A stretch of DNA of 14,800 nt, from positions 1-14,800 of the IMG/VR virus record IMGVR_UViG_2617271085_000020; one strand, 5' to 3'. The notes under the pieces were generated by a model. That model was not told the origin of the DNA, did not search any database, and worked only from the letters and a program-made list of their open reading frames with translations. Source of the DNA: a virus (lineage: Duplodnaviria; Heunggongvirae; Uroviricota; Caudoviricetes). The stretch's first letter is position 1, and each line of letters begins with the position of its first letter. Shown here piece after piece: positions 1-14,800 of the stretch. A program made the translations under genes and the position numbers.

Positions 1-275
1 GTTAAGCGAGATTTTGTGCCTGGCAGGCCATTGGGTTGAGAATATTAGAGTATTGGAAGCGCATTATAAGTTCATTCCTGCTCACAGTGAAATCAGATGT
101 GTACGAAATCACATTTTTTGCCTTTGGCTTGAGTGTAGACCTTAAGCGAGGAGCAGGATCTTCTTTCAGACTTATGGCATAATGCGCGGTTTGTCATATC
201 TCTTTTCAGGATACGCCTGTGTTAGTTTCCAGTAACGTCACAATATAGTTTCAAAGCAACTAATTTTGCTGTGAA

Positions 276-306
276 TTTAGAGTTGGTTTGAAAGTGATGG
301 TATTAT
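276..306 (+). promoter_or_regulatory. Putative sigma70-type promoter for the plus-strand cassette: -35-like TTTAGA (276-281), extended -10 TGgTATTAT (298-306)
   Basis: Read directly from the sequence. The 19-nt spacer is longer than optimal, but the extended -10 TG motif could compensate. It lies about 60 nt upstream of the AAAGGAG ribosome-binding site at 368-374. Not verified. Confidence 0.3.
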
Positions 307-380
307 GTTGATAAGACGAATATAAGGTTAGATCCTTCGATTAATTAGCTACAATTTTGAATATACGAAAGGAGCATTTC

Positions 381-827
381 GTGGTTTTTGGGAATAGGCA
401 TCAACCTGATACGGAACCAGAAGAGCCTGTAAGTGTGGGGATACCAACAGCTGTTCCCAAGGGGAATTCTGGACGCAAATCATTCTCAAATCTTCGCAGA
501 GAGCTAACTGATGAGGAGCTTAGCTCTGCTGCGGTACAACGAATGTTGCTTGATGAGATTGAAAGATTAGATGGTGAATGCAATGATTTGCGTGTGATTC
601 GCGATAAGTTTCATACATCCGATAAACTTGTAGGAGTATTAGAAGAAAAATTCAAAACAAAAATTGCTTTGGAAATAATGCATGTGACATGTTTTCTAAT
701 TTCAGGCTCTGCCTTTGGATATGCCACTTCAAACTGGTCAACTCAGCCGACTGCCGCTGTGCTCGCGTTAGCTTTTGGTAGTGTGCTCACTGTCGGGGGG
801 ATAGCTGCAAAGGTGGTCAAGCCATGA
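381..827 (+). CDS. Hypothetical protein with a coiled-coil-like N-terminal part and two C-terminal hydrophobic (transmembrane-like) segments
   Basis: The ORF track gives 357..827 from a TTG. GTG at 381 is in the same frame and is preceded by AAAGGAG (368-374) at 6-nt spacing, so it is the more likely start. The C-terminus (IALEIMHVTCFLISGSAFGYA ... TAAVLALAFGSVLTVGGIAAKVV) is hydrophobic. The stop overlaps the next start (ATGA at 824-827). No family recognised. Confidence 0.45.
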   Translation: MVFGNRHQPDTEPEEPVSVGIPTAVPKGNSGRKSFSNLRRELTDEELSSAAVQRMLLDEIERLDGECNDLRVIRDKFHTSDKLVGVLEEKFKTKIALEIMHVTCFLISGSAFGYATSNWSTQPTAAVLALAFGSVLTVGGIAAKVVKP

Positions 828-1180
828 AAGTTAATATTACAGCAATTCGCGAACCTGGAAACTTAGATAAGGAACGAATTGTCATTCGAGTTGACAGTTC
901 ATGCAATATTGGAGAGTTTATACTGCTACAAACGGGATTTGAGAATGAGTCGGTAAACACTGGTATTTACGAAACATTTTGGTTTCCGGATAAACCTGTT
1001 CGCGCTGGCGATCTTGTTGTCGTATATACAAAAGCAGGAAAAAGTAGTGAAAAGAAAAGTAATGATGCAACATCACATTTTTTCTATATAGGGAAAGCGA
1101 TTCCTATTTGGAATAGAAATGAACAAAGCGCGGTACTTATGCATGCACCTGAGTGGCAAAGTTTTCAGGCTGTGCTTTAG
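824..1180 (+). CDS. Hypothetical 118-aa soluble protein, translationally coupled to the upstream ORF
   Basis: ATG at 824 overlaps the upstream TGA (ATGA). The ORF is complete and ends with TAG at 1178-1180. No recognisable motif. Confidence 0.45.
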   Translation: MKVNITAIREPGNLDKERIVIRVDSSCNIGEFILLQTGFENESVNTGIYETFWFPDKPVRAGDLVVVYTKAGKSSEKKSNDATSHFFYIGKAIPIWNRNEQSAVLMHAPEWQSFQAVL

Positions 1181-1203
1181 TTTTTAAAAAGAAAATAATT
1201 AAT

Positions 1204-1221
1204 GGGCGATTTTAATCGCCC
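1204..1221 (-). terminator. Intrinsic terminator hairpin between the convergent transcription units (GGGCGA-loop-TCGCCC)
   Basis: Perfect GC-rich inverted repeat at 1204-1221. On the minus-strand RNA it is followed by a U-rich tract (AUUAAUUAUUUUCUUUUU) and sits 30 nt downstream of the tape measure stop at 1251. On the plus strand the downstream flank is not U-rich, so it mainly serves the minus-strand operon. Confidence 0.45.
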
Positions 1222-1250
1222 GTATTGCCTGTGAATAACTTGAAGATTAT

Positions 1251-3596
1251 TTACATTTTGCGTCTGTTTCCTGATTGAACAATTGATGTGATAATCTTTT
1301 CTTGCTTCTTGAGTTGTTCAGCAAACCAACGCTGATCAGTCACGTTTCCTTGTACGATTACACGAGCATCAATAGGCTGAGTCTTAGACTCGCTTTGATT
1401 ATTCAAGAAGTCTTTCAAATCTCCGTTAGTTCTCTGATCAACGACTCTTTCACCACCATCAAGCAGCCATGTTCCTTCTCTTGGAATTTCAGAAATGCCA
1501 TCGTGAGCCATACCAGTCATATTCACAGATTTCATGGACATAACTTGTCCTAAAACTTGCGCATAACTTGATGCGGCTAATGCGTATCCCAAAGGACCAG
1601 GATAAGTTGCCATTGCTTTAGTTGCAGATTGATATGCGTTTAACATACCATTTGCGATAGCTGTTCCTTTAGCTACTGCAAACGCAGCTTGAGCGGCTTT
1701 AGAGTTTTCACCCGAAATACCGGAAATAACACCAGCCATGCCTTGAGCAAAACCGTTATACATTCCCATTTTCGTTTGAATTTCCATCATAGCAATATTT
1801 TCAGACTGAACAGAATAAGCCTTGTCTAGTCGTCTTTTTTGCTCTAAAAATTGTTCATGCGACAAAAGTCCAGATTCGTACATTTTCTGATTCTGTTCTC
1901 TGAACCTTTCGAACTGTTGATTTAATGCTTCTTGCTCTAATGCCATTCTTTCTTCATCAGTTGCGAAACCAATTGAATTCAAGTTCTGCATATTCACCTG
2001 ATTAGCATCAATCTCTTTAATTGCTTTCATCTTCTCTTGATGTGCAATTTGGAGATTCTCTAACTGTTCGTTGTATTGCTGTTCTGAAATCAAGTTCTGT
2101 TGACGTTTAATATCCAGTTCTTGCTTTTGAATATCGAACATTTGATTCATCGACTGAGTGATAATGCCAATGTCAGCAGGATTAGCCTTAAGACTGTCGG
2201 AGAATTCTTTTGACGAGTTAATCAATAGAGAATTACGACGTTCTAGGAATTGCTCCTGTGAGATTATCCCTTTGTCTCTTAGTTCTTGAAGCTTTGTTAG
2301 TGCTTGCTGAGTCTGATTAATCTGAGAAGCATATGAACGTCCTTCTTGAGCAATAACCGCAACGTCTAACTGTTTCAGAGATTCAACTGCCTGAGCACGA
2401 TCAGCCATCATTTTGTCATAATCAGCTTTGGCTTTAGCCATTGCAGCTTTACGTTCCCTTTCGGCTTTATCAGCAGCAGATTTTCTTTCACGTTCAGCTT
2501 TATCAGCAGCGTCTTTTTCTTTCTTCGCTTTTTCTTCTAAGACTTTCTGGCGAGCCTTATTTGCCATCGTTTCTTGTTCAGCTAAACGAACTAGCTGATT
2601 AACTTGTTTTTTAAGCAACTTGGCATTTTCTGCAATAAACGCCTGACGCTTTTCAATTTCGATTGCTTCAACAGACTTTCCGATATTCTGCACTTGACCA
2701 GAGGACATACCAGAAGGAGTTATACCCTTTTTGTTATTCTCTCTTAGCCATTTCGCAAAAGACGTTTCACTCCAATCAATACCATCCATCCACTCATAAA
2801 GATTGTTAAATTCACGAACTAATGGACTAGCAGCTTCGACCGTGAATTCATTAGTTGCTTTCTTCAAAGAATTCATGTTTCTTTCATATTCTTTGAATTC
2901 GTCGGCAACGTCTTGAGTAATTGAAACTGTTTGACCTTGAATTGCGTTTAATGCGTCTTGGGTATTAGAAAAATTCTGTAATGTTGAAATCAAATGAGAA
3001 CCATCAGACGCCATTGATTCCATTGCGTTAGTAATTTCAGCAGATGATTTACCAGCGGCTCTTAATTGATAGAACGTGTCGATTAATGCTTTAATACCAC
3101 CTTCGGCATCACCAGCATATTTTGCATAATCTTCAAGTTTTAAACCCCATTCTTCTAAGTCGTCGGCAATACCACCACCGCCAGCTCTCAAAGAATCACC
3201 GAGTTTATCCATTGCGTCTTTGTTTAAATCACCGAATTTCTCAACGTCCATTCCGGTAGCTTTGAACGTTGATTGCAACTGTTGAAGCATTTCAATAGAA
3301 ACGCCAGTTGTTGTGTTAACCTGATTTAATACGTTAACAGTTTCAGCAGCTTTATTAATTGCAGCAAAACCAGCACCTGCAACTAACCCCGCTGCACCCA
3401 ATGCGCGTAACGCAGGGGACATACTTTGAATCGTGCTGAGACCATCGCTGAGACCATTTAGTGGACCTGTGAAATTACTAAAAAGACCCTGAGCGGCTGA
3501 ATCAAGTTTATTCAGTTCGTCCATAGAGTCTTTTACAGCAGTAGACAGTCCTTTATTATCTCCGCGAATCTCAACATCATAACGAGAATTCGCCAT
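1251..3596 (-). CDS. Tail tape measure protein (781 aa)
   Basis: Large, strongly coiled-coil protein (e.g. KAKKEKDAADKAERERKSAADKAERERKAAMAKAK) with Gly/Ala-rich hydrophobic segments near both ends (LRALGAAGLVAGAGFAAI; AFAVAKGTAIANGMLNAYQ ... PGPLGYALAASSYAQVLG). It lies immediately downstream of a G/T chaperone-like ORF pair, with its ATG embedded in TAATAATG at the end of the T ORF. The assignment rests on architecture and context, not on a database hit. Confidence 0.6.
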   Translation of the reverse strand: MANSRYDVEIRGDNKGLSTAVKDSMDELNKLDSAAQGLFSNFTGPLNGLSDGLSTIQSMSPALRALGAAGLVAGAGFAAINKAAETVNVLNQVNTTTGVSIEMLQQLQSTFKATGMDVEKFGDLNKDAMDKLGDSLRAGGGGIADDLEEWGLKLEDYAKYAGDAEGGIKALIDTFYQLRAAGKSSAEITNAMESMASDGSHLISTLQNFSNTQDALNAIQGQTVSITQDVADEFKEYERNMNSLKKATNEFTVEAASPLVREFNNLYEWMDGIDWSETSFAKWLRENNKKGITPSGMSSGQVQNIGKSVEAIEIEKRQAFIAENAKLLKKQVNQLVRLAEQETMANKARQKVLEEKAKKEKDAADKAERERKSAADKAERERKAAMAKAKADYDKMMADRAQAVESLKQLDVAVIAQEGRSYASQINQTQQALTKLQELRDKGIISQEQFLERRNSLLINSSKEFSDSLKANPADIGIITQSMNQMFDIQKQELDIKRQQNLISEQQYNEQLENLQIAHQEKMKAIKEIDANQVNMQNLNSIGFATDEERMALEQEALNQQFERFREQNQKMYESGLLSHEQFLEQKRRLDKAYSVQSENIAMMEIQTKMGMYNGFAQGMAGVISGISGENSKAAQAAFAVAKGTAIANGMLNAYQSATKAMATYPGPLGYALAASSYAQVLGQVMSMKSVNMTGMAHDGISEIPREGTWLLDGGERVVDQRTNGDLKDFLNNQSESKTQPIDARVIVQGNVTDQRWFAEQLKKQEKIITSIVQSGNRRKM
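2448..2510 (-). repeat. Near-tandem 30-nt repeat (two copies, 33-nt period) inside the tape measure gene, encoding AADKAERERK twice
   Basis: Plus-strand copies at 2448-2477 and 2481-2510. The peptide is identical in both copies but three codons differ synonymously (gcc/gct, agg/cgt, cgt/aga). Confidence 0.6.
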
Positions 3597-3598
3597 TA

Positions 3599-3946
3599 TT
3601 ATTTCCTATTTTTAGCTTTTGCTTTCGCAAGAAGTTTCGGGTCGAACATAGATTCCATTTTCTTTCTGTTGGCTTCTGCGGCTTTTTTCTGTTCTTCTTC
3701 CAGTTCTTCAGGAGATTTAAAAACTTTATCCTTGATGAACATGAAATCTTTCAGTTTTAATTTCTTCGAACCTTCTTTTGTAATATTTGGATTATTAGCA
3801 AAAACAGAAAATGCTATATGCGCTTGATGTAAGTCATTTACAGCAGGACCTTGAGGTTCAATGAAAGTTTCATATATCCACAGTTCATAGAAATCCTTAA
3901 TACTCATATCCAGAATTTCACGTTCGGTAAAACCTCTACGCAACAT
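3599..3946 (-). CDS. Tail assembly chaperone T-like ORF, probably expressed as a G-T fusion by -1 frameshift
   Basis: The ORF is in the -1 frame relative to the upstream 98-aa ORF. Its reading frame is open upstream of its own ATG as far as 4093, overlapping the last ~37 codons of the G-like ORF. There is no Shine-Dalgarno sequence in front of its ATG (aaattcagaaccATG). It sits immediately upstream of the tape measure gene and has a basic, Lys-rich C-terminus. Confidence 0.45.
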   Translation of the reverse strand: MLRRGFTEREILDMSIKDFYELWIYETFIEPQGPAVNDLHQAHIAFSVFANNPNITKEGSKKLKLKDFMFIKDKVFKSPEELEEEQKKAAEANRKKMESMFDPKLLAKAKAKNRK

Positions 3947-3981
3947 GGTTCTGAATTTGAATATTTTATAAGGATTCTGCC

Positions 3982-4278
3982 TTAATTCTTTTCCACAGCG
4001 TGAGTTTCTTCTTTCATAACAGAAGCAGCAGAAACAGCAGCAGAAAGTTGAGCGCGAACGGTGGTATAAAGTTGTTTGACTTGTTCGATATTTTCAAAAA
4101 CAGGGGATCCGTCTTCGTTCTCAATGCATTTCAGAATCATATTATCGGTCTGGTCTTCCATAAAAAAGAATTTACCAAATTCTTCAACGGTCATTGCGCG
4201 AACATAAAATTTAAAACCTTTGATTTCTACAACTTCTCGTTTTGCTCCGAGAGCGGCGATCATTTCTTCGAATTTCAT
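3982..4278 (-). CDS. Tail assembly chaperone G-like protein (98 aa)
   Basis: Small acidic ORF directly upstream of the T-like ORF and tape measure gene, preceded by an AGGA ribosome-binding site. This is the canonical G / GT / TMP arrangement of long-tailed phages. Confidence 0.45.
   Translation of the reverse strand: MKFEEMIAALGAKREVVEIKGFKFYVRAMTVEEFGKFFFMEDQTDNMILKCIENEDGSPVFENIEQVKQLYTTVRAQLSAAVSAASVMKEETHAVEKN
3988..3994 (-). promoter_or_regulatory. Candidate -1 ribosomal slip site G GAA AAG near the end of the G-like ORF
   Basis: mRNA reads ...gct gtg gaa aag aat taa. A -1 shift at GAA-AAG would read GGA-AAA and continue in the open T frame. The heptamer is not a canonical X XXY YYZ motif, so the exact site is uncertain; the shift could occur anywhere in 3985-4093. 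Confidence 0.2.
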
Positions 4279-4323
4279 TTCTTAATCCTATAGTTAATTT
4301 AAATGTTTACTTTATTTATGCCG

Positions 4324-4356
4324 AAAAAGGAGCTATCACGAAGATAACTCCTTTTG
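4324..4356 (-). terminator. Stem-loop (8-bp AAAAGGAG/CTCCTTTT stem with inner 4-bp TATC/GATA stem) between the 106-aa gene and the G-like gene; possible terminator or attenuator
   Basis: Inverted repeat read directly from the sequence. The U-run forms part of the stem, so terminator strength is uncertain. It is followed on the minus strand by cATAAATAaag, which resembles but does not match a T4 late promoter (TATAAATA). Confidence 0.3.
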
Positions 4357-4357
4357 A

Positions 4358-4678
4358 TTACTCGATGAATTGGAAGAAATATCCAATCATTCTGAATCCT
4401 TTATGAATATATTCTTGCTGAAAAATACAAACAGCATTTTGTTCAAAGAAAGGACCATTGATTTCTACGATTTCATTATTCTTGAAATGATAACGAGGTT
4501 TCTTTTTCTGAGTGCTAACAATAAAAACGTTTTGGTCGTTTTGAAGATTCCTTTTTATACGAGTTTCTTTCACCAGTTCAAAGCTATAAGGAATAGTCAT
4601 CGACTCTGGATTGTGCTCTTTGATAAAAATAGAATCGAGTTCGTCAACACGATATGTTTCAAAATCATTTAAGTTCAT
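4358..4678 (-). CDS. Hypothetical protein (106 aa from the ATG at 4678)
   Basis: The ORF track begins at 4711, but the ATG at 4678 is preceded by a strong ribosome-binding site (aaAAGGAGAcaaaATG) and avoids overlap with the upstream gene. No family recognised. Confidence 0.5.
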   Translation of the reverse strand: MNLNDFETYRVDELDSIFIKEHNPESMTIPYSFELVKETRIKRNLQNDQNVFIVSTQKKKPRYHFKNNEIVEINGPFFEQNAVCIFQQEYIHKGFRMIGYFFQFIE

Positions 4679-4694
4679 TTTGTCTCCTTTTCTT

Positions 4695-5234
4695 TTATTT
4701 AGTAGCAACACGACGAACCGTTTTTATGATGTCATTACCAATATCAGTCCAAGAACCAATAGATTTCTTACGAGTTTGATGACGTTTGAAAATAGCAATA
4801 ACTCTTTTGTTCTGTTTTTTAACATTTGTCTTAATCAGAATCGTTCTGTTAATACCATCTTTCTTTTGTTTGACTGCCTCTAGGTTTCTACGAGTTTTTA
4901 ATCCTGGAATGTTACCGAACTGGTTAGTCGAACCTCTTACCCCTGTTGGAACATATTTGTTAATCGGACTGTTATCATCTATCAAGTGTGAAAGATAATT
5001 CGCCTGAACGTCTTTGATAAAGATTCTGTTAGTTGTTCCTTCTTTATCAATCTTAAATCTGAACCCAACGGCGTTCTTGGTGAAATTCACAGGTCCTTCA
5101 ACACGTCGATTAATCTTTCGTTGTAACTCAACAGAAGCGAGTTTAGACGCTTTAGTTACTCTTTTAGAGAACTGATCAGATTCTTTTATTCGCCATTTGT
5201 CTAAGTCTTTTTTAACTCCACCAAGTTTCGCCAT
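4695..5234 (-). CDS. Hypothetical highly basic (Lys/Arg-rich) 179-aa protein without cysteine
   Basis: Complete ORF whose start overlaps the stop of the upstream 70-aa ORF at 5234. The composition suggests a nucleic-acid-binding or internal virion protein. No family recognised. Confidence 0.45.
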   Translation of the reverse strand: MAKLGGVKKDLDKWRIKESDQFSKRVTKASKLASVELQRKINRRVEGPVNFTKNAVGFRFKIDKEGTTNRIFIKDVQANYLSHLIDDNSPINKYVPTGVRGSTNQFGNIPGLKTRRNLEAVKQKKDGINRTILIKTNVKKQNKRVIAIFKRHQTRKKSIGSWTDIGNDIIKTVRRVATK

Positions 5235-5446
5235 TACATACTCCCAAATGAAACAATTGCAAAGATATATTTCATAGCTTCATCAAGAGGAACGATAGGA
5301 AGAACTATTCCGAAGAAACTCAATGCACACGGAACAACGATGTAATTATAAACAGCCATTGCAATCATCGCGTAAATGAATTTCTTTTTAAAGTCCCCTG
5401 TCATTGCTGGAAGTTTCTTGAATGCAGCTTTCATTTTTTCAATCAT
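5234..5446 (-). CDS. Small hydrophobic membrane protein (70 aa), holin-like in size and topology
   Basis: Basic N-terminus (MIEKMKAAFKKLPAMTGDFKKK) followed by two to three hydrophobic segments. It overlaps the end of the nuclease gene by 8 nt. It lacks the charged C-terminal tail typical of holins, so the holin call is tentative. Confidence 0.4.
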   Translation of the reverse strand: MIEKMKAAFKKLPAMTGDFKKKFIYAMIAMAVYNYIVVPCALSFFGIVLPIVPLDEAMKYIFAIVSFGSM

Positions 5447-5894
5447 ACTTCACCTTTAAATTTTGTTTGTACAAGTTAATGAGAGATTTTTTATCACCAA
5501 CTGGATTTATGTCCTCTGCTAATAAAGTCTCTTTCATTTGCTTTAACGTCATTTTCGAAAAGCGCTTTGATAGGTCTGTTACAAGTTGAGGATGAATAGG
5601 ATTTTTAGAATTATCTTTTTCGAGATAAGTTACCAATCTTTTTAAAAAATCAATATATTCGATGTGCTTCGCTAAACCTGAATACATGAATTGATGTTTT
5701 AATCTGCCCTCAAGGACGTTTGCCTGTGCGAGTAATAATCCTCGGCATCGTCCAGCTTGAGAACCATCAAGAGCGTGGTCATGGTCTAAATGGGCTTTAT
5801 TAACATCGGTAATTTCTATCCCAGTTAAAGCACATCTTTTATTTTGTTTATCAAAAAGGGTTTTCTTGTAATTATTTATTTCTTTTCGTTTCAC
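5439..5894 (-). CDS. Endonuclease VII-like (T4 gp49 family) junction-resolving nuclease, 151 aa, GTG start
   Basis: The motif KAHLDHDHALDGSQAGRCRGLLLAQANVLEGRLKHQF aligns with the T4 Endo VII catalytic core (ANHLDHDHELNGPKAGKVRGLLCNLCNAAEGQMKHKF, recalled from memory). The downstream ...VTYLEKDNSKNPIHPQLV matches ...LTYLKSDYTQNNIHPNFV. The catalytic Asp/His/His/Asn/Glu positions are conserved. Confidence 0.6.
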   Translation of the reverse strand: MKRKEINNYKKTLFDKQNKRCALTGIEITDVNKAHLDHDHALDGSQAGRCRGLLLAQANVLEGRLKHQFMYSGLAKHIEYIDFLKRLVTYLEKDNSKNPIHPQLVTDLSKRFSKMTLKQMKETLLAEDINPVGDKKSLINLYKQNLKVKYD

Positions 5895-6168
5895 TGTCTA
5901 TCACCGCTAATCGAATTTCGATTTCTCTAATTCGATTGTCTATACTTTTCATATCACCTTTAAACTCCTTAAACGAATCACGAACGTTGGTTAATTCAGT
6001 ATTTGCGTTTGAATCGGTCGCACTATTAAGAGCAACGCTTTTCTCGATTTCAGATAGTCTCTGTTCGATTTTTAAAGCGTCGGCTTCCATTGCGTTCTTT
6101 TGAGACCAAATCCATCCAAAGCCAGCGCATAGCAGTCCCGCGAAAGAAATGATGGCTTCAACACCCAT
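5872..6168 (-). CDS. Membrane-anchored coiled-coil protein (98 aa): one N-terminal transmembrane segment then a coiled coil; possible spanin, holin or antiholin-like protein
   Basis: N-terminus MGVEAIISFAGLLCAGFGWIW is hydrophobic; the remainder is heptad-like and charged (EADALKIEQRLSEIEKS ... IREIEIRLAVIDSE). Preceded by an AAGGAG ribosome-binding site. Function not established. Confidence 0.4.
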   Translation of the reverse strand: MGVEAIISFAGLLCAGFGWIWSQKNAMEADALKIEQRLSEIEKSVALNSATDSNANTELTNVRDSFKEFKGDMKSIDNRIREIEIRLAVIDSETKRNK

Positions 6169-6229
6169 TTTCTTTCTCCTTTTAAGACCTCCATGTCTTA
6201 TTTAGAAAAACGGATTTGGGGGAAAGAAA

Positions 6230-9200
6230 TCAAACTTTACTGATAAAATAAACTGCCCTTGAGGCTTCTGCTCGGTTTAATTCGACCGTATAAGTTAAAT
6301 CAACAGCTTGTCCCGCTTCGATGTATGCGACACCACCGTTTGAACCGTTTAGAGATTGAGATTGAACGTAAACAACTTCTTGGCCGTTTGAGAGTCTTAA
6401 CCACGCTTTGCCACCACCCCAACCAGTACCACCAGAATAAGTTCTTCCGGCGATTGCAACGTTAGGAATAGCAATCATTCTTCTCCAACCAACAGCAGGA
6501 ATATGAACAGATCCCCACGGATCGACAAATCCCATTTTGATAACGTCACCTTCGATTCTGTCAGCGTAAACAGTCCCTGTGAAATAACCAGAACCACCTC
6601 TGATTTCTCCTGAGAAATAACCAGAATCAGCTTGAATATTTCCTTTAACTGTAACGTTTTGGAATGAAGCCCAACCATCTTTTCTAATTGTCCATCCTTG
6701 AGTACCACCGGAAGGAACCCAGTTATCAGAGGATATTTCCCAGGCAATTTGTGCTGAACCGATTTGAGCATTACCAATTTTCGCTGTTGTAATAGCACCG
6801 TCTTGAATCTGCGCGTTATTAATTGCAGCATTAGCAATTTTGGCATTATCAATTGCAGCATTAGCAATTTGAGCATTACCGATCGAAGCATTGCGAATCA
6901 TCGCGCTTTGTAAATAAACTCTATCATCTGCGACCATGAACGGTGGAACAGCATTAGGAGCAGTGTTATTATTTGTTATAGCAATCTTATCAGCGTTAAA
7001 AATAATGCTTGAGGCTTTATTTCCCGCAGCGTCCTTAGATGCCAACATACTAATACCAGCTACGACACCATCGGCGTTTGTAGAAACAGCCCATTTACTG
7101 TTAACAGTTCCTGCTAAATCGTCAACGCTTGCTTTTGCTTCGGTAGAAACAGTCGCGACCATATCCGTAGTTTCAGCTTTTAATTGGCTGATTTGTGAAG
7201 CTGTTGCAGCACGATCATCCGCTTGGGTTTTCTCAACTTCGGTTATAGCAGAGTTTAACTTACCGTCAAAATCAGCCGTTTGAATCGTAATAGCCTGATT
7301 GATAGCGCCTTGCGTTTCATTCGTTATCTGAGTATGCAACGTTGTATTAGACGTGCTGATCTTCTGATCAATCTCGGTTGTTACTTCCTGCTTAGTTGAT
7401 GTTATCTGAGTATCGGTATAAGCATTTGCGAGTTCTAAAGCGTCCTCGATAGCACCATCAACTCGTTGGTCTAAATCAAGCAAGTCGTTTAACTGGTCTT
7501 TCATATCTTCTGTCCATGGAATATCCCATTTCATGTTGATATAAACTGATTCAGTCCAAACTAATTGGTCTTGTCCGAAAACGTCATACCATGCAGCTCG
7601 AACATAATATTCACCGTCAACTAACGGGAAGTTTTCAATGAACTGGCTAGAACTCAACTGAACTTGATTAATGTCAGTGAATTCAGGATTATTTGAAACT
7701 TGAATAACAGTTCCAGAATAATCAGGTGCAACACTCATTGGATCGTTCCAAGAACACATCAATAATCCAGGACCATTCGAAGCAGTAAAACCGATTATTG
7801 CAGGAGCTTGATTATTTCTTACGATTAATTCAGTAGGTTCAGATCTTAAACCTGAATAACCAACAGCAGTGATTTCAAATTTAATTTCACGACTGATACC
7901 GTTTTGCTGGTTCATTCGTAAATCATAAATGAAGCTCAAATCTTTAGTTCTGTATACAACAGGTCTTTGTCCAGTGATTTTGATTTCGTAATACTGAAAT
8001 ACTTGTTCGAAAGTCTGTTGAACGCCGTCAACTTCGAATTTCTCTGAACTCTGATTATCCCATGCAAATTCAAATTGCGTTTGTTGCGTAACGTTGTTAT
8101 TAAACTCAGAGTTAACAAGTCTTAGACCACGAACTTTAGGCAGATTATAAACGACATCAGGGTTAACATTCATTGAATAAACCCATTCAGACGTATAGAA
8201 AACACCAGAAGCACAAACACGAATATCATATTTCTGCAATGGGTCCATGTTCATAATCAAGTAAGAATTTCCTGATGTGAATCCTGCTTGAGTCCATTGG
8301 TTTGTTCCTGCAACTGCATATTGAATATAAAAACCTGAACGGTTAAAATCTTGCTCTGAATTCCATGAAACTTTAAAAGTTCTTCCTAAAGCTGTTTCTG
8401 AAACGCTTGAAACTTTAAGATTCGTAGGAGCAATCAAGTATCCTTTGTTTGGTACGTTTGAACCGTTGTTATTAGGATCTTTCGCATAGTCTAAATCGGT
8501 ATAAACTTCTTCAATATATTCAGTAGCTGTGATGTTAACGATACCAGCAACGCCCTTATTCATTGAACGACTAACGTTAGTAACGCGCCATAACGAATCT
8601 TGCAAATTTAATTCATCAAAGTTAACTCTGATAACATCCCAAACTTGAATAGTATAGGAATCAGGAGAACTAAAGCTGATAATCTGTTTTAACAGTGATT
8701 TGTTACGTTCGATTGAAGCAAGTTTGTCCAATTGGTCTTTAGATTTCACAAAACGATAATTAACATCTTTCGCGATAATACGTTTATCATATTGAATTGT
8801 TTTGTCGGTCGTCACGTCAGATGGATAACGAAGAACTTGCTCGGAATAATCGATTGCAGGATCTTGATATTTCACGTTCAGCGTATTGTAATATTCCTCT
8901 GAACCACCTGAATTCAACGAAACTGAACCAGCAGAAATATTTTCTTCATCGAAATCAAATGAAACAACATCAGGACCATCGATTTTGCAATAAACTTGTC
9001 CGAATGATTCGAAAATCATTCCGTTAAAAGCACCTGCAAGCTGAGTTAAGTTTTCTTTAAACGTTGCGTTAGGGTCTGTTGCACCATCGGAAAATAGTTG
9101 ATTGCTTAAAGCATAATTTGCAGCAGCTTTAAAACTATCAAGGTTAATTTTATCAAGTGAAACTCCTAATCCGTATCGTTCGTTCGTCAGATAATCGACA

Positions 9201-9910
9201 ATCTGACTTGCACCGTTGCGAGATGGAACGATTTGTCCCGTGTTTAAGTCAGTAATCAAACGTCCTCTAACATCAACAGCGACCTGACTGTTAGGTTGTA
9301 GGATATCAGCTTGGTTTTGTAAGTCTGAATTTCGTTTCTGCATTACGATACAGCAAGAAGCGACACCGTTACCTGTAGCAGAAACAGGCCAGCCACTTGG
9401 GTCATTTCCTAAGTATTGTTCAGCAAGTTTGAAATGATGACCTTGTTCTTTACCAACAGAGAATTCAACTTGCACATAGTCTTGATATTGAGAAACGATT
9501 GAACCTCTTGAAACAATTCCATCACGATAAACGGCATCATTCAGAATACGCTTGTTATCGATATAAAGGTTTTTAAAGCTATCAACTTCACCTTCGGCAA
9601 TTGCAAAAATTTGCACCAAATAAGTCGTATCATTTCCTACAGCATCCCAAACGTTAATTGTTCCTGTGCGTTGTTCACCGTAGATAATCGGTAATACAGT
9701 TGAAGGATCAGACGTTGTTCCTAATGTTGTTGCGGTATCACTTGTATTAAATCGAGGAACAGTTGGTTGCATAGCTGTTGACATTAAAGCGGAAACAGCA
9801 GCAACAGCAACACCAATACCGATTGAAATAGCTAATGCCATCCCAGCGGCATAAGCAGCAAGACCAGCAGAAGCACCAGCGATGATTGCACCAATTGCGA
9901 CAATAGCCAT
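6230..9910 (-). CDS. Central tail fibre / host specificity protein, lambda gpJ-like, with an N-terminal gpI C-domain-like segment (1226 aa)
   Basis: The N-terminal 90 aa (hydrophobic Gly/Ala-rich stretch then ...STVLPIIYGEQRTGTINVWDAV) resemble the lambda gpI C-terminus (...NVLPVLYGEMRVGSRVVSQ). The remainder has fibronectin-III-like segments and a C-terminal region like lambda J (PPFMVADDRVYLQSAMIRNASIGNAQI ... GEIRGG ... DRIEGDVIK versus PMFVAQGNQIFMNDVFL ... TLRAEKIVGDIV). Lambda sequences are recalled from memory. Confidence 0.75.
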   Translation of the reverse strand: MAIVAIGAIIAGASAGLAAYAAGMALAISIGIGVAVAAVSALMSTAMQPTVPRFNTSDTATTLGTTSDPSTVLPIIYGEQRTGTINVWDAVGNDTTYLVQIFAIAEGEVDSFKNLYIDNKRILNDAVYRDGIVSRGSIVSQYQDYVQVEFSVGKEQGHHFKLAEQYLGNDPSGWPVSATGNGVASCCIVMQKRNSDLQNQADILQPNSQVAVDVRGRLITDLNTGQIVPSRNGASQIVDYLTNERYGLGVSLDKINLDSFKAAANYALSNQLFSDGATDPNATFKENLTQLAGAFNGMIFESFGQVYCKIDGPDVVSFDFDEENISAGSVSLNSGGSEEYYNTLNVKYQDPAIDYSEQVLRYPSDVTTDKTIQYDKRIIAKDVNYRFVKSKDQLDKLASIERNKSLLKQIISFSSPDSYTIQVWDVIRVNFDELNLQDSLWRVTNVSRSMNKGVAGIVNITATEYIEEVYTDLDYAKDPNNNGSNVPNKGYLIAPTNLKVSSVSETALGRTFKVSWNSEQDFNRSGFYIQYAVAGTNQWTQAGFTSGNSYLIMNMDPLQKYDIRVCASGVFYTSEWVYSMNVNPDVVYNLPKVRGLRLVNSEFNNNVTQQTQFEFAWDNQSSEKFEVDGVQQTFEQVFQYYEIKITGQRPVVYRTKDLSFIYDLRMNQQNGISREIKFEITAVGYSGLRSEPTELIVRNNQAPAIIGFTASNGPGLLMCSWNDPMSVAPDYSGTVIQVSNNPEFTDINQVQLSSSQFIENFPLVDGEYYVRAAWYDVFGQDQLVWTESVYINMKWDIPWTEDMKDQLNDLLDLDQRVDGAIEDALELANAYTDTQITSTKQEVTTEIDQKISTSNTTLHTQITNETQGAINQAITIQTADFDGKLNSAITEVEKTQADDRAATASQISQLKAETTDMVATVSTEAKASVDDLAGTVNSKWAVSTNADGVVAGISMLASKDAAGNKASSIIFNADKIAITNNNTAPNAVPPFMVADDRVYLQSAMIRNASIGNAQIANAAIDNAKIANAAINNAQIQDGAITTAKIGNAQIGSAQIAWEISSDNWVPSGGTQGWTIRKDGWASFQNVTVKGNIQADSGYFSGEIRGGSGYFTGTVYADRIEGDVIKMGFVDPWGSVHIPAVGWRRMIAIPNVAIAGRTYSGGTGWGGGKAWLRLSNGQEVVYVQSQSLNGSNGGVAYIEAGQAVDLTYTVELNRAEASRAVYFISKV
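6816..6875 (-). repeat. Tandem 30-bp direct repeat (two copies, about 27/30 identical) in the J-like gene, encoding the N-A-x-I peptide repeat region
   Basis: The 20-mer aattgcagcattagcaattt occurs at 6821-6840 and again at 6851-6870 with similar flanks. The protein here reads IANAAIDNAKIANAAINNAQI. Confidence 0.6.
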
Positions 9911-10326
9911 TATTTTCTCCTGTTAAAAATTAATTCGTATTCAAAATCTTTTACGTTTATCAAAGCGTATTTGTTGTTGTGTTCAATAATTGCTTTGTCG
10001 TTAAAGACAATCGACGCAACGTAATAAACTCGGCGTCTGTATGTTTTTTTAATTAAGACAATTGACCCTGTTTCGATAATGTTTGATTTTTCGAAATGCT
10101 TTTCACAAGCTTCTAAAACGTTATTAAAACCTGTAAGTTCTTTGCAGTGTTTTAAACCCGATTGAACAGAGTCATATTTGGAAATAAGTTTGCTTGCGTA
10201 ATCTGTTCCGCAAGTCATATCGATATATTCAGCGACAAGGATATTACAGTCGTTTTGACCGTATTTGTGTTCTTTGTTGATATAACGATTTAATAATTTT
10301 GATAAGTCAGCTTGAAATTTAAACAT
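9910..10326 (-). CDS. Lambda gpK-like tail assembly protein, NlpC/P60 (papain-like) domain only
   Basis: The motif KYGQNDCNILVAEYID resembles the lambda K catalytic-Cys region (HGVTDCYTLFRDAY), with a downstream His (IIEHNN). The stop overlaps the J-like start (TAATG at 9908-9912). The likely start is the ATG at 10326 (ribosome-binding site GAGGTG); the ORF track starts at GTG 10338. There is no JAB/MPN half. Confidence 0.45.
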   Translation of the reverse strand: MFKFQADLSKLLNRYINKEHKYGQNDCNILVAEYIDMTCGTDYASKLISKYDSVQSGLKHCKELTGFNNVLEACEKHFEKSNIIETGSIVLIKKTYRRRVYYVASIVFNDKAIIEHNNKYALINVKDFEYELIFNRRK

Positions 10327-10360
10327 TTTAAGATTCACCTCTGACTTTATTTAGAGCCAA

Positions 10361-10386
10361 AAAAAGACCCCGTTAGGAGTCTTTTA
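10361..10386 (-). terminator. Rho-independent terminator on the minus strand (AAAAGACUCC-UAAC-GGGGUCUUUU followed by UUU)
   Basis: On the minus-strand RNA the stem includes one G-U wobble pair and is followed by a U7 run. On the plus strand the same stem has a C-A mismatch, so it is oriented for the minus strand. It sits 20 nt after the 162-aa gene stop and directly before the gpK-like ribosome-binding site. Confidence 0.6.
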
Positions 10387-10405
10387 AGATTGAACAATAA
10401 AACGA

Positions 10406-10894
10406 TTAGCCTTCTGGAGTTGGAGCAGTCAAATCAACCAAAGCTTCGGCAATTGGACCACCATCAACACTCAGAGTCATAGCCTGTGCAGCAACTTCTG
10501 ATTCACCACCGGAATAAGTAGCGCTTGACAGGAAACCGTTATACATTTTTGCAACACCGATTTCTTTAGAAGCATCCATCCAATAAACGATTTTGAACTG
10601 ACCACGTTTACCATCTTCCGCAAGCTTATAAAGCTGATCATGAATAGACCCAGGAATATAGTTAACAGTCAAATCGATATCAGGAACAGAACCACGACCA
10701 ACCAGTTTACGGCTGTATTTGTGAGTAAAGTTAGGAGCAACGATTACCTCACGTTCGATACCAGTCGTAGGAAATGCGCCAACTTCAGGAACTTCTACGA
10801 ATTTCTCTGAGTCGATATCTTTGTTCAATACGTCAGAGTTGAAAAATACACTGACGTAAGAGCCAGCGAAAATATCATATGCTTTATCAGCCAT
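10406..10894 (-). CDS. Probable abundant virion structural protein (162 aa), possibly a major tail / tube-like protein
   Basis: Complete ORF with an AGGA ribosome-binding site, flanked by a stable hairpin upstream and a strong terminator downstream, which suggests high expression relative to neighbours. A loose resemblance to small siphovirus tail tube proteins (...KLAEDGKRGQFKIVYW...) is from memory only. Confidence 0.3.
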   Translation of the reverse strand: MADKAYDIFAGSYVSVFFNSDVLNKDIDSEKFVEVPEVGAFPTTGIEREVIVAPNFTHKYSRKLVGRGSVPDIDLTVNYIPGSIHDQLYKLAEDGKRGQFKIVYWMDASKEIGVAKMYNGFLSSATYSGGESEVAAQAMTLSVDGGPIAEALVDLTAPTPEG

Positions 10895-10936
10895 TTTAAA
10901 TATCCTTTATTAAGTAATAACGTTATTATTTAGATG

Positions 10937-10956
10937 AAAGGGACTTTCGTCCCTTT
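10937..10956. other. Perfect 8-bp hairpin (AAAGGGAC / GTCCCTTT) in the fibre to 162-aa intergenic region; GAAA tetraloop on the minus-strand RNA
   Basis: Read directly from the sequence. On the plus strand it is followed by a T-rich tract (terminator-like for antisense transcription). On the minus strand it lies upstream of the 162-aa gene and could be an mRNA processing or stability element. Confidence 0.3.
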
Positions 10957-10959
10957 TTA

Positions 10960-13815: not shown

Positions 13816-13867
13816 TTCATTCTCCTGTTGAAAAATAACATCCTTGTTATTTAATTAATCAAATTTT

Positions 13868-14800
13868 TTAGAATGTTCCGGCGTCTAACGTTTCACCTTG
13901 AGCTACTGCGTTAACATCAACAGGAGTTGGTTTATTCGTAGGAGAATAAACTTCTTGACCTTTGACTTTCACCGAATCAGATTGAATTTCTTTAGTATTT
14001 AGATTGTCGATTTCAACAAGCGGGGCGTTTATCTTTTTGCGTACAGTCAAATAATCCTGAATCGTCAGTGAACCTTGTAACGTTCCTCCCGTAATAGGAA
14101 GCGCTCCAATGTCTTCTGTTGTAGGACGTTCAAGTTCTGTATAGACCTTAACCCAATTCGATTCATTGATTGTCCCGTCGGGATTCATCTGCTTGTTACG
14201 AATACGTATGCTAGGATTACCGATACTTGCTCCAATCAGTTCCCATCCTTGACCACTTGGATGCTGAATTGCCATAGCAGACGTGCCAGAGTTATATGGA
14301 TTATCAGTGTTAACCCCATCAACAGTTATCCATCTGTTACCAGTCAAAAGACCTAAATCTTTTACACCTTCGATTTCTTCTGTTCCTGCACCAACACCAT
14401 AATCGCCAACGTTTAACGGAGTTGAATACTCAGCGTAACCTGAAAATAATTTACCGTCTGGACTTAAAGTATAGTTGTTAATTACAGCGGAACTCTCAGA
14501 CCCGTTTGTTTCTTTCTTCGTAACATAAGCATCAAAGATATGATAAAGACCGGATTGTCTTTCTCTTGTATGTTCTGAATCGACAACATAAAGATTTCTA
14601 AATCGAAGTTTTTTCTTATTCATTAACGCATTGTCTAACAATTCGGAAACTTCATCATCAGATTCAAATATGCTTAAAACAGTGTTATCAATTGTTTGAT
14701 CACCTGATAATTTAACTTCAAAATCTTCTCGATAATCTTCGAGTGATTGAACTTGATTTGAAAATCCTATTACCGGAAAAGCAGCAACATTTTCAGTTTC
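13868..14800 (-). CDS. Tail fibre protein, 5'-truncated by the window edge (C-terminal 310 codons present)
   Basis: The frame is open from the stop at 13868 to position 14800 with no stop codon, so the ORF-track start (TTG at 14641) is only an internal codon. The C-terminal motif TEDIGALPITGGTLQGSLTIQDYL resembles T4 proximal-fibre (gp34) C-terminal motifs (SDIGALPSDNATMGNLTIRDFL, from memory). Confidence 0.6.
   Translation of the reverse strand, partial: ETENVAAFPVIGFSNQVQSLEDYREDFEVKLSGDQTIDNTVLSIFESDDEVSELLDNALMNKKKLRFRNLYVVDSEHTRERQSGLYHIFDAYVTKKETNGSESSAVINNYTLSPDGKLFSGYAEYSTPLNVGDYGVGAGTEEIEGVKDLGLLTGNRWITVDGVNTDNPYNSGTSAMAIQHPSGQGWELIGASIGNPSIRIRNKQMNPDGTINESNWVKVYTELERPTTEDIGALPITGGTLQGSLTIQDYLTVRKKINAPLVEIDNLNTKEIQSDSVKVKGQEVYSPTNKPTPVDVNAVAQGETLDAGTF

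Follow-up and report, generated by a model that had tools for sequence, protein, structure and literature searches.

An uncharacterised mobile gene pair at the edge of an E. coli prophage, a candidate for a new phage-defence system

Introduction

What is the role of two small genes that lie at the very edge of a prophage and run against its late operon? The question is raised by the window analysed here, a stretch of 14,800 nucleotides (positions 1 to 14,800 of the IMG/VR record IMGVR_UViG_2617271085_000020, a virus of the Caudoviricetes), in which two genes, called A and B in the text, face the tail tape measure gene. A reading of the letters without database searches (the sequence-only reading) had proposed that they form an accessory module, perhaps for defence or exclusion, and that comparison with related phages would tell whether the cassette is variably present. 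In the present work, the locus was compared with related prophages, with sequence and profile databases and with predicted structures. On this basis, we consider the A-B pair an uncharacterised mobile module and a good candidate for a new phage-defence system.

Results

Layout and limits of the cassette

The arrangement first described for this locus, a two-gene plus-strand cassette convergent with the tape measure gene, was recovered in full (Table 1). The remaining plus-strand open reading frames of at least 40 amino acids are all nested in minus-strand genes, so that A and B are, as had been stated, the only credible plus-strand genes in the window. The convergent gene encodes a tape measure protein, as it matched PHROG 13674 over its full length (E 9e-62) and further tape-measure PHROGs as well.

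The cassette had been placed at the end of the tail operon. It does adjoin the tape measure gene, but its other side is the junction between prophage and chromosome, at 256/257. Positions 1-256 recur at 99.6% identity in 5423 of the 5426 complete E. coli genomes, the match stops at 256/257, and ldtB ends immediately to the left of this chromosomal stretch. Furthermore, in the alignment with cassette-free sibling prophages, homology is lost from about position 257. Since the first 256 nucleotides belong to the core chromosome, the cassette fills the entire gap from the prophage/chromosome junction to the last late gene. It occupies a cargo slot, on the ldtB side, of a prophage that is AT-rich and uses a serine recombinase for integration. 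The chromosomal origin of positions 1-256 had been overlooked in the sequence-only reading.

Table 1. Features of the cassette and of its two borders (positions in the window)
Feature	Position	Strand	Remark
E. coli core chromosome, intergenic region upstream of ldtB (ybiS)	1-256		outer prophage limit; context only
Cassette leader, AT-rich (31% GC)	257-380	+	starts at the prophage/chromosome junction; contains the candidate extended -10 and the Shine-Dalgarno
Gene A, 148 aa	381-827	+	start at 381 supported by PGAP and homolog alignment
ATGA stop/start overlap of A and B	824-827	+	read in the sequence; overlap kept in 17 of 20 loci
Gene B, 118 aa	824-1180	+	beta-sandwich with predicted LTD fold
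G+C-rich hairpin between the convergent genes	1204-1221	-	T-run on the minus strand
Tail tape measure gene, last of the late operon	1251-3596	-	PHROG 13674; inner cassette limit, context only

Expression signals

Gene A starts with GTG, 6 nt past a Shine-Dalgarno motif, AAGGAG, at 369-374. An upstream TTG at 357 figures in the open-reading-frame list as an alternative start; PGAP and the homolog alignment favour the GTG. When the region upstream of A was scanned with the sigma-70 consensus, no promoter was found. An extended -10, TGGTATTAT, was read by eye at 298-306 and is conserved in the L3Cip3 allele. In the comparison of upstream regions it was not conserved in other genera, and these regions do not align across genera; the idea of a conserved cassette promoter was dropped. 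A promoter proper to the cassette, with TGGTATTAT as its candidate -10, is plausible from the sequence.

Between the convergent genes, GGGCGATT and AATCGCCC form a hairpin that had been taken for a terminator. The hairpin is real, but its T-run lies on the minus strand. It would therefore terminate the tail operon primarily, and be weak at best, or an insulator, for the cassette. In the cassette-free siblings, the tape-measure stop codon is directly followed by a hairpin other than this one.

The ATGA overlap of A and B was also found as described. Among 20 distinct loci from several phyla, 17 have an ATGA or GTGA overlap and three a gap of 4-7 nt, a pattern indicating that A and B are translationally coupled.

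Variable presence and mosaicism in E. coli prophages

In MS 115-1 and PSS-15, prophages occupying the same chromosomal site lack the cassette, and their tape-measure stop codon lies about 45-80 nt from the core chromosome. The prophage of 2021CK-01361, at the same site, lacks it too, as judged by coordinates. The cassette is thus variably present at this locus, being absent from the closest same-site siblings, and only 4 of the 5426 complete E. coli genomes carry it.

The cassettes of the window and of L3Cip3 share 90% identity, whereas the adjoining tape-measure genes share 70% at the nucleotide level and 51% at the amino acid level. In addition, the closest backbone relative of each cassette-bearing prophage is a cassette-free prophage (83% and 91% over the tail module). 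In these alignments, the similarity of the cassette does not track that of the prophage backbone. Absent in siblings, discordant with the backbone and present in unrelated elements (see below), the pair deserves the name of accessory module that it had been given. Positions 257-1250 hold a two-gene accessory cassette that is autonomous and moves horizontally, and Hendrix's term "moron" applies to it.

A compositional anomaly of the cassette was considered and dropped, its GC content (39.3%) not differing from that of the prophage (38.4 ± 2.6%). The exact alleles of the window occurred in a single genomic context and are for this reason uninformative on recent mobility.

Protein A is a predicted membrane hairpin protein

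A had been described as a protein with a coiled-coil-like part and a C-terminal transmembrane hairpin, and both the helices of the AlphaFold2 model and the hydropathy profile agree with this description. The model comprises a disordered region at 1-33, a helix at 50-117 and a second helix at 123-146, for which the Kyte-Doolittle mean over 19 residues is 2.07. The protein can be divided into a variable acidic N-terminus, a long helix whose coiled coil (50-95) runs into a first transmembrane segment (TM1, 96-117, only moderately hydrophobic), a short loop and a second segment (TM2, 123-146). A conserved linear motif extends approximately from K27 to L47, with R32, R40, L42 and L47 near-invariant. 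On the model, A is predicted to be a tail-anchored membrane hairpin of N-in/C-in topology, with only about 5 residues exposed to the periplasm.

The polar face E98-x-x-H101-x-x-C104 of TM1 was examined as a functional motif and rejected. It is invariant in close relatives and not conserved in the wider A family, which leaves a pore mechanism without residue-level support.

No Pfam model matched A at E ≤ 1, the SLATT models included, and nothing exceeded the threshold in PHROGs and NCBIfam. A profile search against PDB sequences returned noise only. Two matches were dismissed as hydrophobic/coiled-coil noise, one of NF041044 ("GIVxVP") to the membrane region (20 bits for a cut-off of 35) and a spurious one of a PADLOC cyclase (E 0.064).

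Protein B is predicted to adopt the lamin tail fold

B had been called small and soluble. It is indeed devoid of any hydrophobic segment, and the description has to be corrected in that a fold can be recognised. The model is all-beta (pLDDT 95.7), and in superpositions its Ig-like beta-sandwich fits the lamin tail more closely than it does other Ig-like folds. With this model and no signal peptide, B is best described as a cytoplasmic protein that consists of a lone beta-sandwich of the lamin-tail-domain (LTD) type.

At the sequence level, the identity with lamins is 12-18%. B itself did not match PF00932 even at E ≤ 1, while 19 of 34 relatives of B did so weakly (best E 1.7e-4). No match above threshold was obtained in PHROGs, PADLOC or NCBIfam, a profile search against PDB sequences yielded nothing, and no viral relative was convincing in a Foldseek search of BFVD.

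Relative to the 90%-identical L3Cip3 allele, dN/dS values of 0.11 for A and 0.047 for B point to purifying selection. The A family contains 858 clusters at 50% identity and the B family 428 clusters at 90% identity. Selection and family size together signify that neither gene is a chance open reading frame.

Distribution and genomic neighbourhoods

A followed by B on the same strand was observed at 30 of 30 loci, which span at least five phyla. Among the relatives listed with the best scores, 150 of A and 120 of B, no fusion was seen and the proteins of both families were uniformly small. Megablast of the cassette region against phages gave no match. No description of the pair came up in the literature searched on lamin tail domains in phage defence and in prophages, or under the RefSeq accessions.

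The cargo sites of four unrelated prophage types hold the pair. It was found at the end of a lambdoid prophage, adjoining umuDC; in a lambdoid prophage bearing Abi_alpha, MrcB_N and PIN genes as well, between the antiterminator Q gene and the methylase/holin genes; at the integrase end of a P2/186-like prophage, adjoining a DUF4062 gene; and in the gpS-gpV interval of a P2-like prophage. Other copies adjoin the integrase of a P4-like (satellite-like) element or lie in integrase-associated islands, and in Achromobacter the pair adjoins Fic/VbhA.

In two distant phyla, the pair directly adjoins complete CBASS and PADLOC candidate (PDC) systems. In Algoriphagus (Bacteroidota), PDC-M29A/B (E 1e-182 and 7e-65) come after A-B, and a complete type III CBASS comes next. 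In a member of the Latescibacterota, the pair is flanked by PDC-S01 (E 2e-108) and a type IIG/PglX-like methyltransferase; a sister genome has a type II CBASS inserted beside the pair. At some other loci, the neighbours are ordinary metabolic genes; in Stutzerimonas, A-B lies between a dehydrogenase and a methyltransferase, with no obvious defence or mobile context. This neighbourhood evidence is qualitative. It covers about 25 independent loci, and the PADLOC models include generic domains.

Discussion

Proposed function

The best explanation of these observations is a mobile accessory cassette that is most likely anti-phage, acting by abortive infection or exclusion, and we give this reading a probability of about one half. 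The pair is a genuine autonomous accessory cassette and probably an anti-phage module made of a membrane effector and an LTD partner. The case for this putative role in defence or exclusion is strengthened by the adjoining CBASS, PDC-S01 and PDC-M29 and by the cargo sites that the pair occupies in prophages. Neither protein matched a system of PADLOC-DB v2.0.0, and no homology to a validated defence protein was found.

A more detailed proposal, which we hold tentatively and put somewhat below even, is that A-B is an unrecognised, widespread anti-phage system in which a tail-anchored coiled-coil membrane effector is under the control of the cytoplasmic LTD protein, acting as its sensor or gatekeeper. 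Under the best explanation, transcription in the lysogen would probably start in the cassette's leader and run opposite to the late operon, and translational coupling would supply A and B in fixed proportion. A would be held in the inner membrane by its C-terminal two-helix hairpin, with the coiled coil and the N-terminal motif in the cytoplasm, where the lamin-tail (Ig-like) domain of B is the most plausible partner of the linear motif. B may sense or gate A through this contact. An incoming phage that disturbed the A-B complex would be the trigger; A would then oligomerise through its coiled coil and the glycine-containing hairpin, and either the membrane would be compromised or entry blocked.

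Alternative explanations

Among the alternatives, the one that survives best, although it is unlikely, is a toxin-antitoxin or addiction module. A would be a small membrane toxin and B its proteic antidote, and the pair would stabilise the carrier element without any phage sensing. Two small, translationally coupled genes that are always together, a membrane hairpin protein among the products, and residence on many mobile elements, in one case beside Fic/VbhA, are what such a module might present. However, no toxin or antitoxin family of Pfam or NCBIfam was matched, the Ig-like B is unlike the folds typical of DNA-binding antitoxins, and tblastn of A and B against 72,556 plasmids, a frequent home of addiction modules, found no copy. 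Moreover, a toxin gene in first position is an atypical order for type II systems, and the putative toxin gene A precedes B. Since many toxin-antitoxin pairs also serve in phage defence, this explanation overlaps the anti-phage reading.

Non-lethal superinfection exclusion, which we rank second among the alternatives and hold to be improbable, supposes that a membrane A-B complex works much as Sie or Imm proteins do, stopping incoming phages at the inner membrane, at genome entry or in an early step, and that the cell survives. The prophage-borne position at the edge of the element and against the late genes agrees with it, as do the recurrence in temperate phages and a satellite-like element and the prediction that A is an inner-membrane protein with its bulk in the cytoplasm. 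On the other hand, A shows the periplasm only a few residues, and the pair is also found in chromosomal defence islands without a prophage. Exclusion proteins usually cover a narrow range of hosts and phages, whereas A-B spans at least five phyla with very different envelopes and phages.

A role outside defence is more doubtful still. The pair might be, for example, a membrane-tethered, split-lamin-like scaffold concerned with envelope or stress physiology, DNA tethering or regulation, and be mere cargo on the elements that carry it. A coiled-coil protein goes here with an LTD protein, as the rod goes with the tail in lamins, and both the metabolic genes around some loci and the lack of defence homology in PADLOC fit such a role. 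Against it stand the repeated capture in prophage cargo slots, the complete defence systems next door, the rarity within E. coli and the absence from sibling prophages, this patchiness being typical of conflict genes and not of housekeeping scaffolds.

Finally, a core phage function encoded on the opposite strand (tail assembly, holin/antiholin lysis or replication), which the adjoining tail module and a superficial likeness of the two C-terminal helices of A to class II holins could suggest, is effectively refuted: the nearest siblings keep intact tail modules without the cassette, chromosomal loci without phage genes carry A-B, no PHROG or Pfam holin model was matched, tblastn of A and B found nothing in 50,697 phage records (IMG/VR gave one match), and in the prophage family the cassette does not adjoin lysis genes, the glycoside hydrolase of a sibling prophage being about 30 kb away. 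The Pfam, PHROG and NCBIfam scans and the tblastn search of phages agree with the initial impression that neither protein resembles one for structure, replication or lysis.

Significance

If the anti-phage reading is true, a compact (about 0.9 kb) two-gene system with new parts joins the anti-phage repertoire. It would bring the first defence role for the LTD fold and the first function for a bacterial cytoplasmic lamin-tail fold, a coiled-coil rod paired with an LTD in bacteria and not only in the eukaryotic lamins, and a simple model of the silencing and later triggering of a tail-anchored membrane hairpin. Near-isogenic E. coli prophages with and without the cassette are available at the same ldtB/ybiT site, so that their lysogens can be compared directly. 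Should the pair not be for defence, it would still be strictly linked, strongly conserved and highly mobile, from Enterobacteria to Bacteroidota and Latescibacterota, a family worth annotating.

Comparison with known systems

Temperate phages reportedly possess morons and cargo slots such as lambda bor/lom and the b region beside attP, or P2 orf30, Z/fun and tin-old, which are said to have been described by Hendrix and colleagues and by Nilsson and Haggard-Ljungquist. As in these cases, A-B is inserted as a self-contained unit, and the features on either side of it are direct neighbours in related phages (MS 115-1, PSS-15). It lies antiparallel to the late operon, with a hairpin downstream, adjoins the attachment junction, and also uses the P2-like gpS-gpV slot and the lambdoid Q-to-holin region. 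It differs from them in a gene content unrelated to any described moron, in a base composition that does not differ from that of the host phage, where many morons stand apart, and in its signals, the promoter being a candidate only (seen by eye where the scan was blank) and the hairpin having its T-run on the opposite strand.

Defence hotspots of P2 and P4 were described by Rousset et al. (10.1101/2021.01.21.427644), who validated in the P4 hotspot a two-protein system given as "unknown protein plus transmembrane effector". By description, this system and A-B both have two proteins, one of them embedded in the membrane, and both belong to mobile-element hotspots of Enterobacteria. A and B match no model of PADLOC, a database that presumably includes the Rousset systems.

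The short, hairpin-type membrane proteins that serve as 2-TM effectors of CBASS, Pycsar, Thoeris and retrons (SLATT-type) resemble A in form and in their defence context, and A-B adjoins CBASS operons in two phyla. In contrast to the SLATT-type effectors, A has neither a SLATT match in Pfam nor a nucleotide-binding domain, and the cassette includes no signal-producing enzyme. That A-B could be the effector of the neighbouring CBASS operons was considered and rejected: the pair and the CBASS operons lie on opposite strands or have other genes between them, and the pair also occurs alone elsewhere, so that it is a neighbour and not an effector.

With nuclear lamins and PF00932, the likeness consists in the weak matches of B relatives and in the rod-plus-tail echoed by A and B, but here two different polypeptides carry the coiled coil and the LTD, and the one with the coiled coil is predicted to be anchored in the membrane. 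In the part of the literature consulted, bacterial LTDs are described mostly in secreted or surface proteins, for example the nuclease ExeM (PMC6085458); compared with those, B is predicted to be stand-alone and cytoplasmic and has no signal peptide.

Lambda RexAB and the two-component Abi systems complete the comparison. A and B have no sequence or profile similarity to RexAB in PADLOC, and their parts differ: RexB is a polytopic protein with four transmembrane segments, whereas A is predicted to be anchored at its tail by a hairpin, its long coiled coil lying in the cytoplasm, and B to have an Ig-like LTD fold. Like these systems, the pair is prophage-encoded and combines one soluble with one inner-membrane protein, and the logic of RexAB, a sensor and a membrane effector, is the one that we propose for A-B.

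Organization of the A-B cassette at the prophage/chromosome junction

The sequence-only reading had taken A and B, the coupled genes of the cassette, for the only plus-strand genes of the window. The ORF listing of the window is in agreement with this: all the remaining plus-strand ORFs of at least 40 aa lie inside minus-strand genes. The ATGA coupling and the convergence with the tape measure gene were also recovered (see table). Of the terminator claimed between the convergent genes, the G+C-rich hairpin was found, but its T-run is on the minus strand; its orientation thus makes it chiefly a tail-operon terminator and, seen from the cassette, at best a weak terminator or insulator. A promoter belonging to the cassette, likewise claimed, is only plausible: the extended -10 read by eye upstream of A is kept in the 90%-identical allele of L3Cip3, a cassette-bearing sibling prophage of E. 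coli, but a consensus scan of this region gave no sigma-70 promoter, and the -10 is not conserved in the cassettes of other genera.

Features of the window and of related loci, with their coordinates
Feature	Record	Position	Strand	Remarks
Core-chromosome match	window	1-256		intergenic region directly upstream of ldtB (ybiS)
Extended -10 TGGTATTAT	window	298-306		upstream of A; candidate, read by eye
AAGGAG	window	369-374		6 nt before the GTG start of A
ORF A	window	381-827	+	GTG start, 148 aa
ATGA stop/start overlap A/B	window	824-827	+	
ORF B	window	824-1180	+	118 aa
G+C-rich hairpin	window	1204-1221	-	between the stop codons of B and the tape measure gene
Tape measure gene	window	1251-3596	-	PHROG 13674, E 9e-62; converges on the cassette
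Endonuclease VII gene	window	5439-5894	-	inside the tail module; PHROG 423, E 4e-35
J-like tip protein	window	6230-9910	-	
Tail fibre	window	10960-13815	-	951 aa; C-terminal part like T4-type long tail fibre distal subunit, PHROG 1699, E 5e-101
TIR-domain gene and small upstream gene	L034 (L3Cip3)	9381-10564		near a glycoside hydrolase gene
Defence island with A-B	L027 (Algoriphagus aquaeductus)	5119-16983		
258-aa ORF	L050 (Zoogloeaceae)	8353-9129		11-nt overlap with the end of B
A homolog	L049 (metagenomic contig)	7643-8305		called at 220 aa, N-terminally extended

The window spans the prophage/chromosome junction: positions 1-256 are shared, at 99.6% identity, with 5423 of the 5426 complete E. 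coli genomes and belong to the core chromosome. This match stops at 256/257 and the remainder is prophage. The L3Cip3 prophage, of about 36 kb, carries a large serine recombinase at its end, adjoining ybiT. From the end of the core match and the prophage layout, it follows that the cassette occupies the whole space between the junction and the last late gene, a slot analogous to the attP-adjacent cargo region of other temperate phages. In other E. coli strains, the ldtB/ybiT site holds a different island (hypothetical gene, DNA methyltransferase and recombinase) and is thus an integration hotspot.

The late operon runs along the minus strand in an unusual order: tail fibre, J-like tip protein, small tail/chaperone genes and, last, the tape measure. 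The endonuclease VII gene was not called in a contig of otherwise equal gene layout (L036), and may therefore be a mobile or disrupted element. The prophage part of the window is AT-rich throughout (38% GC), and the sole full-length relative of the tape-measure protein among GenBank phages is that of Escherichia phage DCP80 (38% identity).

Presence of the cassette in sibling prophages

Related prophages were found at the ldtB/ybiT site in seven complete E. coli genomes. In MS 115-1 and PSS-15, the tape-measure stop codon and the core sequence are separated by about 45-80 nt, a spacer with no cassette and only a small hairpin, unlike that of the window; the coordinates of 2021CK-01361 give the same spacing as in MS 115-1. 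The cassette is present in only 4 of the 5426 complete E. coli genomes. Between the window and L3Cip3, which both carry it, the cassettes are 90% identical in nucleotides over 98% of their length, the tape-measure genes 70% (51% in amino acids) and the tail modules 71%. The tail module of the window is 83% identical to that of cassette-free PSS-15, and that of L3Cip3 91% to that of cassette-free MS 115-1. Cassette similarity is therefore discordant with the prophage backbone, the nearest backbone relative of each carrier being devoid of the cassette. The latter must thus have been acquired, lost or exchanged on its own, apart from the phage backbone. The comparison of relatives proposed by the sequence-only reading thus supported its accessory module, and we consider it almost certain that the cassette is an autonomous mobile accessory element.

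At the place of the tail fibre, the annotation of L3Cip3 and PSS-15 shows only a short 'tail fiber domain' fragment and, after it, some 2.3 kb with no annotated gene, which suggests a pseudogene or a divergent receptor-binding region. The L3Cip3 prophage also contains two IS3 copies and a TIR-domain gene with a small upstream gene; the TIR pair represents another candidate for defence cargo within this phage family.

Properties of the A and B proteins

Residues 1-33 of A are predicted to be disordered, followed by a long predicted helix (50-117) and a second one (123-146). The latter is strongly hydrophobic (Kyte-Doolittle 2.07) and the end of the first moderately so; lysines at both ends of this hairpin suggest an N-in/C-in topology with a periplasmic loop of about 5 residues. 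Across 174 aligned members of the A family, which have a median of 37% identity with the window protein, conservation was strongest at P13, R32, R40, L42, L47 and L56, in or adjoining the N-terminal 'disordered' segment, and, within the hairpin, at G113, G133 and L136. This pattern suggests that A may combine a short linear binding motif with a helix-packing hairpin. No SLATT or holin signature was found in A with Pfam and PHROGs.

For B, AlphaFold2 gave a confident all-beta model (pLDDT 95.7), for which the top 12 Foldseek matches in the PDB were the Ig-like tails of lamin A/C or B1 (probability 1.00). Although structurally a lamin tail domain (LTD), B itself fails the Pfam PF00932 sequence test; weak PF00932 matches were obtained for 19 of 34 relatives. 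Neither a hydrophobic segment nor a signal peptide was found in B, in keeping with the small soluble protein first proposed, and B is thus a cytoplasmic stand-alone LTD, by which it differs from the bacterial LTD proteins described. As had been said of their lack of likeness to structural, replication or lysis proteins, neither A nor B had an above-threshold match in Pfam, PHROGs, PADLOC or NCBIfam, nor any among PDB sequences, profiles included.

In all 30 loci examined, B comes directly after A and shares its strand; of 20 distinct loci, 17 have preserved an ATGA or GTGA overlap. The A family comprises 858 clusters at 50% identity with E <= 1e-3 (647 with E <= 1e-10), and the B family 428 clusters at 90% identity. 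Among the matches listed, nearly all A proteins have 135-150 aa, almost all of 120 B proteins have 117-130 aa, and domain fusions were absent. Comparison of the two E. coli alleles gave dN/dS values of 0.11 (A) and 0.047 (B). Among the hosts are Escherichia, Citrobacter, Enterobacter, Pantoea, Symbiopectobacterium, Aeromonas, Pseudomonas, Stutzerimonas, Lysobacter, Methylomonas, Achromobacter, Zoogloeaceae, Desulfuromonas, Algoriphagus (Bacteroidota), Verrucomicrobiota, Acidobacteriota and Latescibacterota. A-B is a strict, ancient and mobile pair. The ORF overlapping B in Zoogloeaceae may represent a three-gene variant.

Genomic contexts of A-B

In lambdoid prophages, A-B lies at the end, preceded by tail fibre, invertase and umuDC genes (Enterobacter), or between antiterminator Q and methylase/holin genes (Symbiopectobacterium, whose prophage additionally has Abi_alpha, MrcB_N and PIN genes). 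A Pantoea P2/186-like prophage has it at its integrase end, adjoining a DUF4062 gene, and in a P2-like prophage of Aeromonas it separates gpS from gpV, which is the P2 orf30 slot. It also adjoins the integrase of a P4-like element (Toprim primase, Ogr/Delta), of which it may be a part. Islands carry it with integrase and DUF6414 (Desulfuromonas), with integrase and transposase (Zoogloeaceae) or next to Fic/VbhA (Achromobacter).

The dense Algoriphagus defence island comprises, in this order, a protein of 1425 aa whose N-terminus is LmuA-like, A-B, the PADLOC candidate system PDC-M29A/B (E 1e-182 and 7e-65) and a complete type III CBASS (NucC, TRIP13, HORMA and cyclase). Two sister genomes of Latescibacterota have A-B flanked by the candidate system PDC-S01 (E 2e-108) on one side and the operon of a type IIG/PglX-like methyltransferase on the other. 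One of the two has, in addition, a type II CBASS of about 5 kb (phospholipase, cyclase and E2) inserted between PDC-S01 and A-B, right next to the pair (L026 6080-8734 versus L028), which clearly illustrates how slots in a defence island turn over. Elsewhere, mad3-like or kinase genes adjoin the pair, and in Stutzerimonas it is flanked by ordinary genes. RHS repeats were detected in the pooled neighbour proteins. The survey, a qualitative one of about 25 independent loci made without background control, gives a distribution such as conflict or defence cargo typically has.

Proposed function and relation to known systems

A-B is a real, conserved and widespread two-gene module, apparently undescribed; the cassette is mobile and two-component, of a cargo or defence-like kind, and assembled from new parts. 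Its genomic context points to an anti-phage function; to this reading, taken in its entirety, we give a probability of about 50%. According to this scheme, the cassette would be expressed in the lysogen, opposing the late operon, and coupled translation would yield an A-B complex at the inner membrane, in which the conserved N-terminal motif of A would be bound by the Ig-like sandwich of B. A phage cue would disturb this complex, and A would then oligomerise via its coiled coil and glycine-containing hairpin, leading either to membrane damage (abortive infection) or to the block of an early step (exclusion).

The best of the other explanations, a toxin-antitoxin or addiction pair, is unlikely and overlaps with defence; tblastn with A and B gave zero matches in 50,697 phage records and 72,556 plasmids, and the lack of plasmid copies is a weak argument against it. 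Non-lethal superinfection exclusion is a little less probable; with a narrow function of this kind, the spread of A-B across phyla and its occurrence in non-prophage islands fit poorly. A non-defence scaffold or physiological function is more doubtful still. A core phage function is effectively refuted, the cassette being missing from siblings and found outside phages.

In the literature, of which coverage was incomplete, no description of an LTD and membrane protein pair was found in a phage-defence or prophage context, and A-B belongs to no family of PADLOC-DB v2. An 'unknown protein plus transmembrane effector' pair has been validated from the P4 hotspot (Rousset et al., 10.1101/2021.01.21.427644); the absence of PADLOC matches for A-B suggests that the two systems are distinct. 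In its behaviour, the cassette resembles morons and cargo modules, and an anti-phage A-B would possibly be akin to the RexAB-type systems, made of a sensor and a membrane effector.
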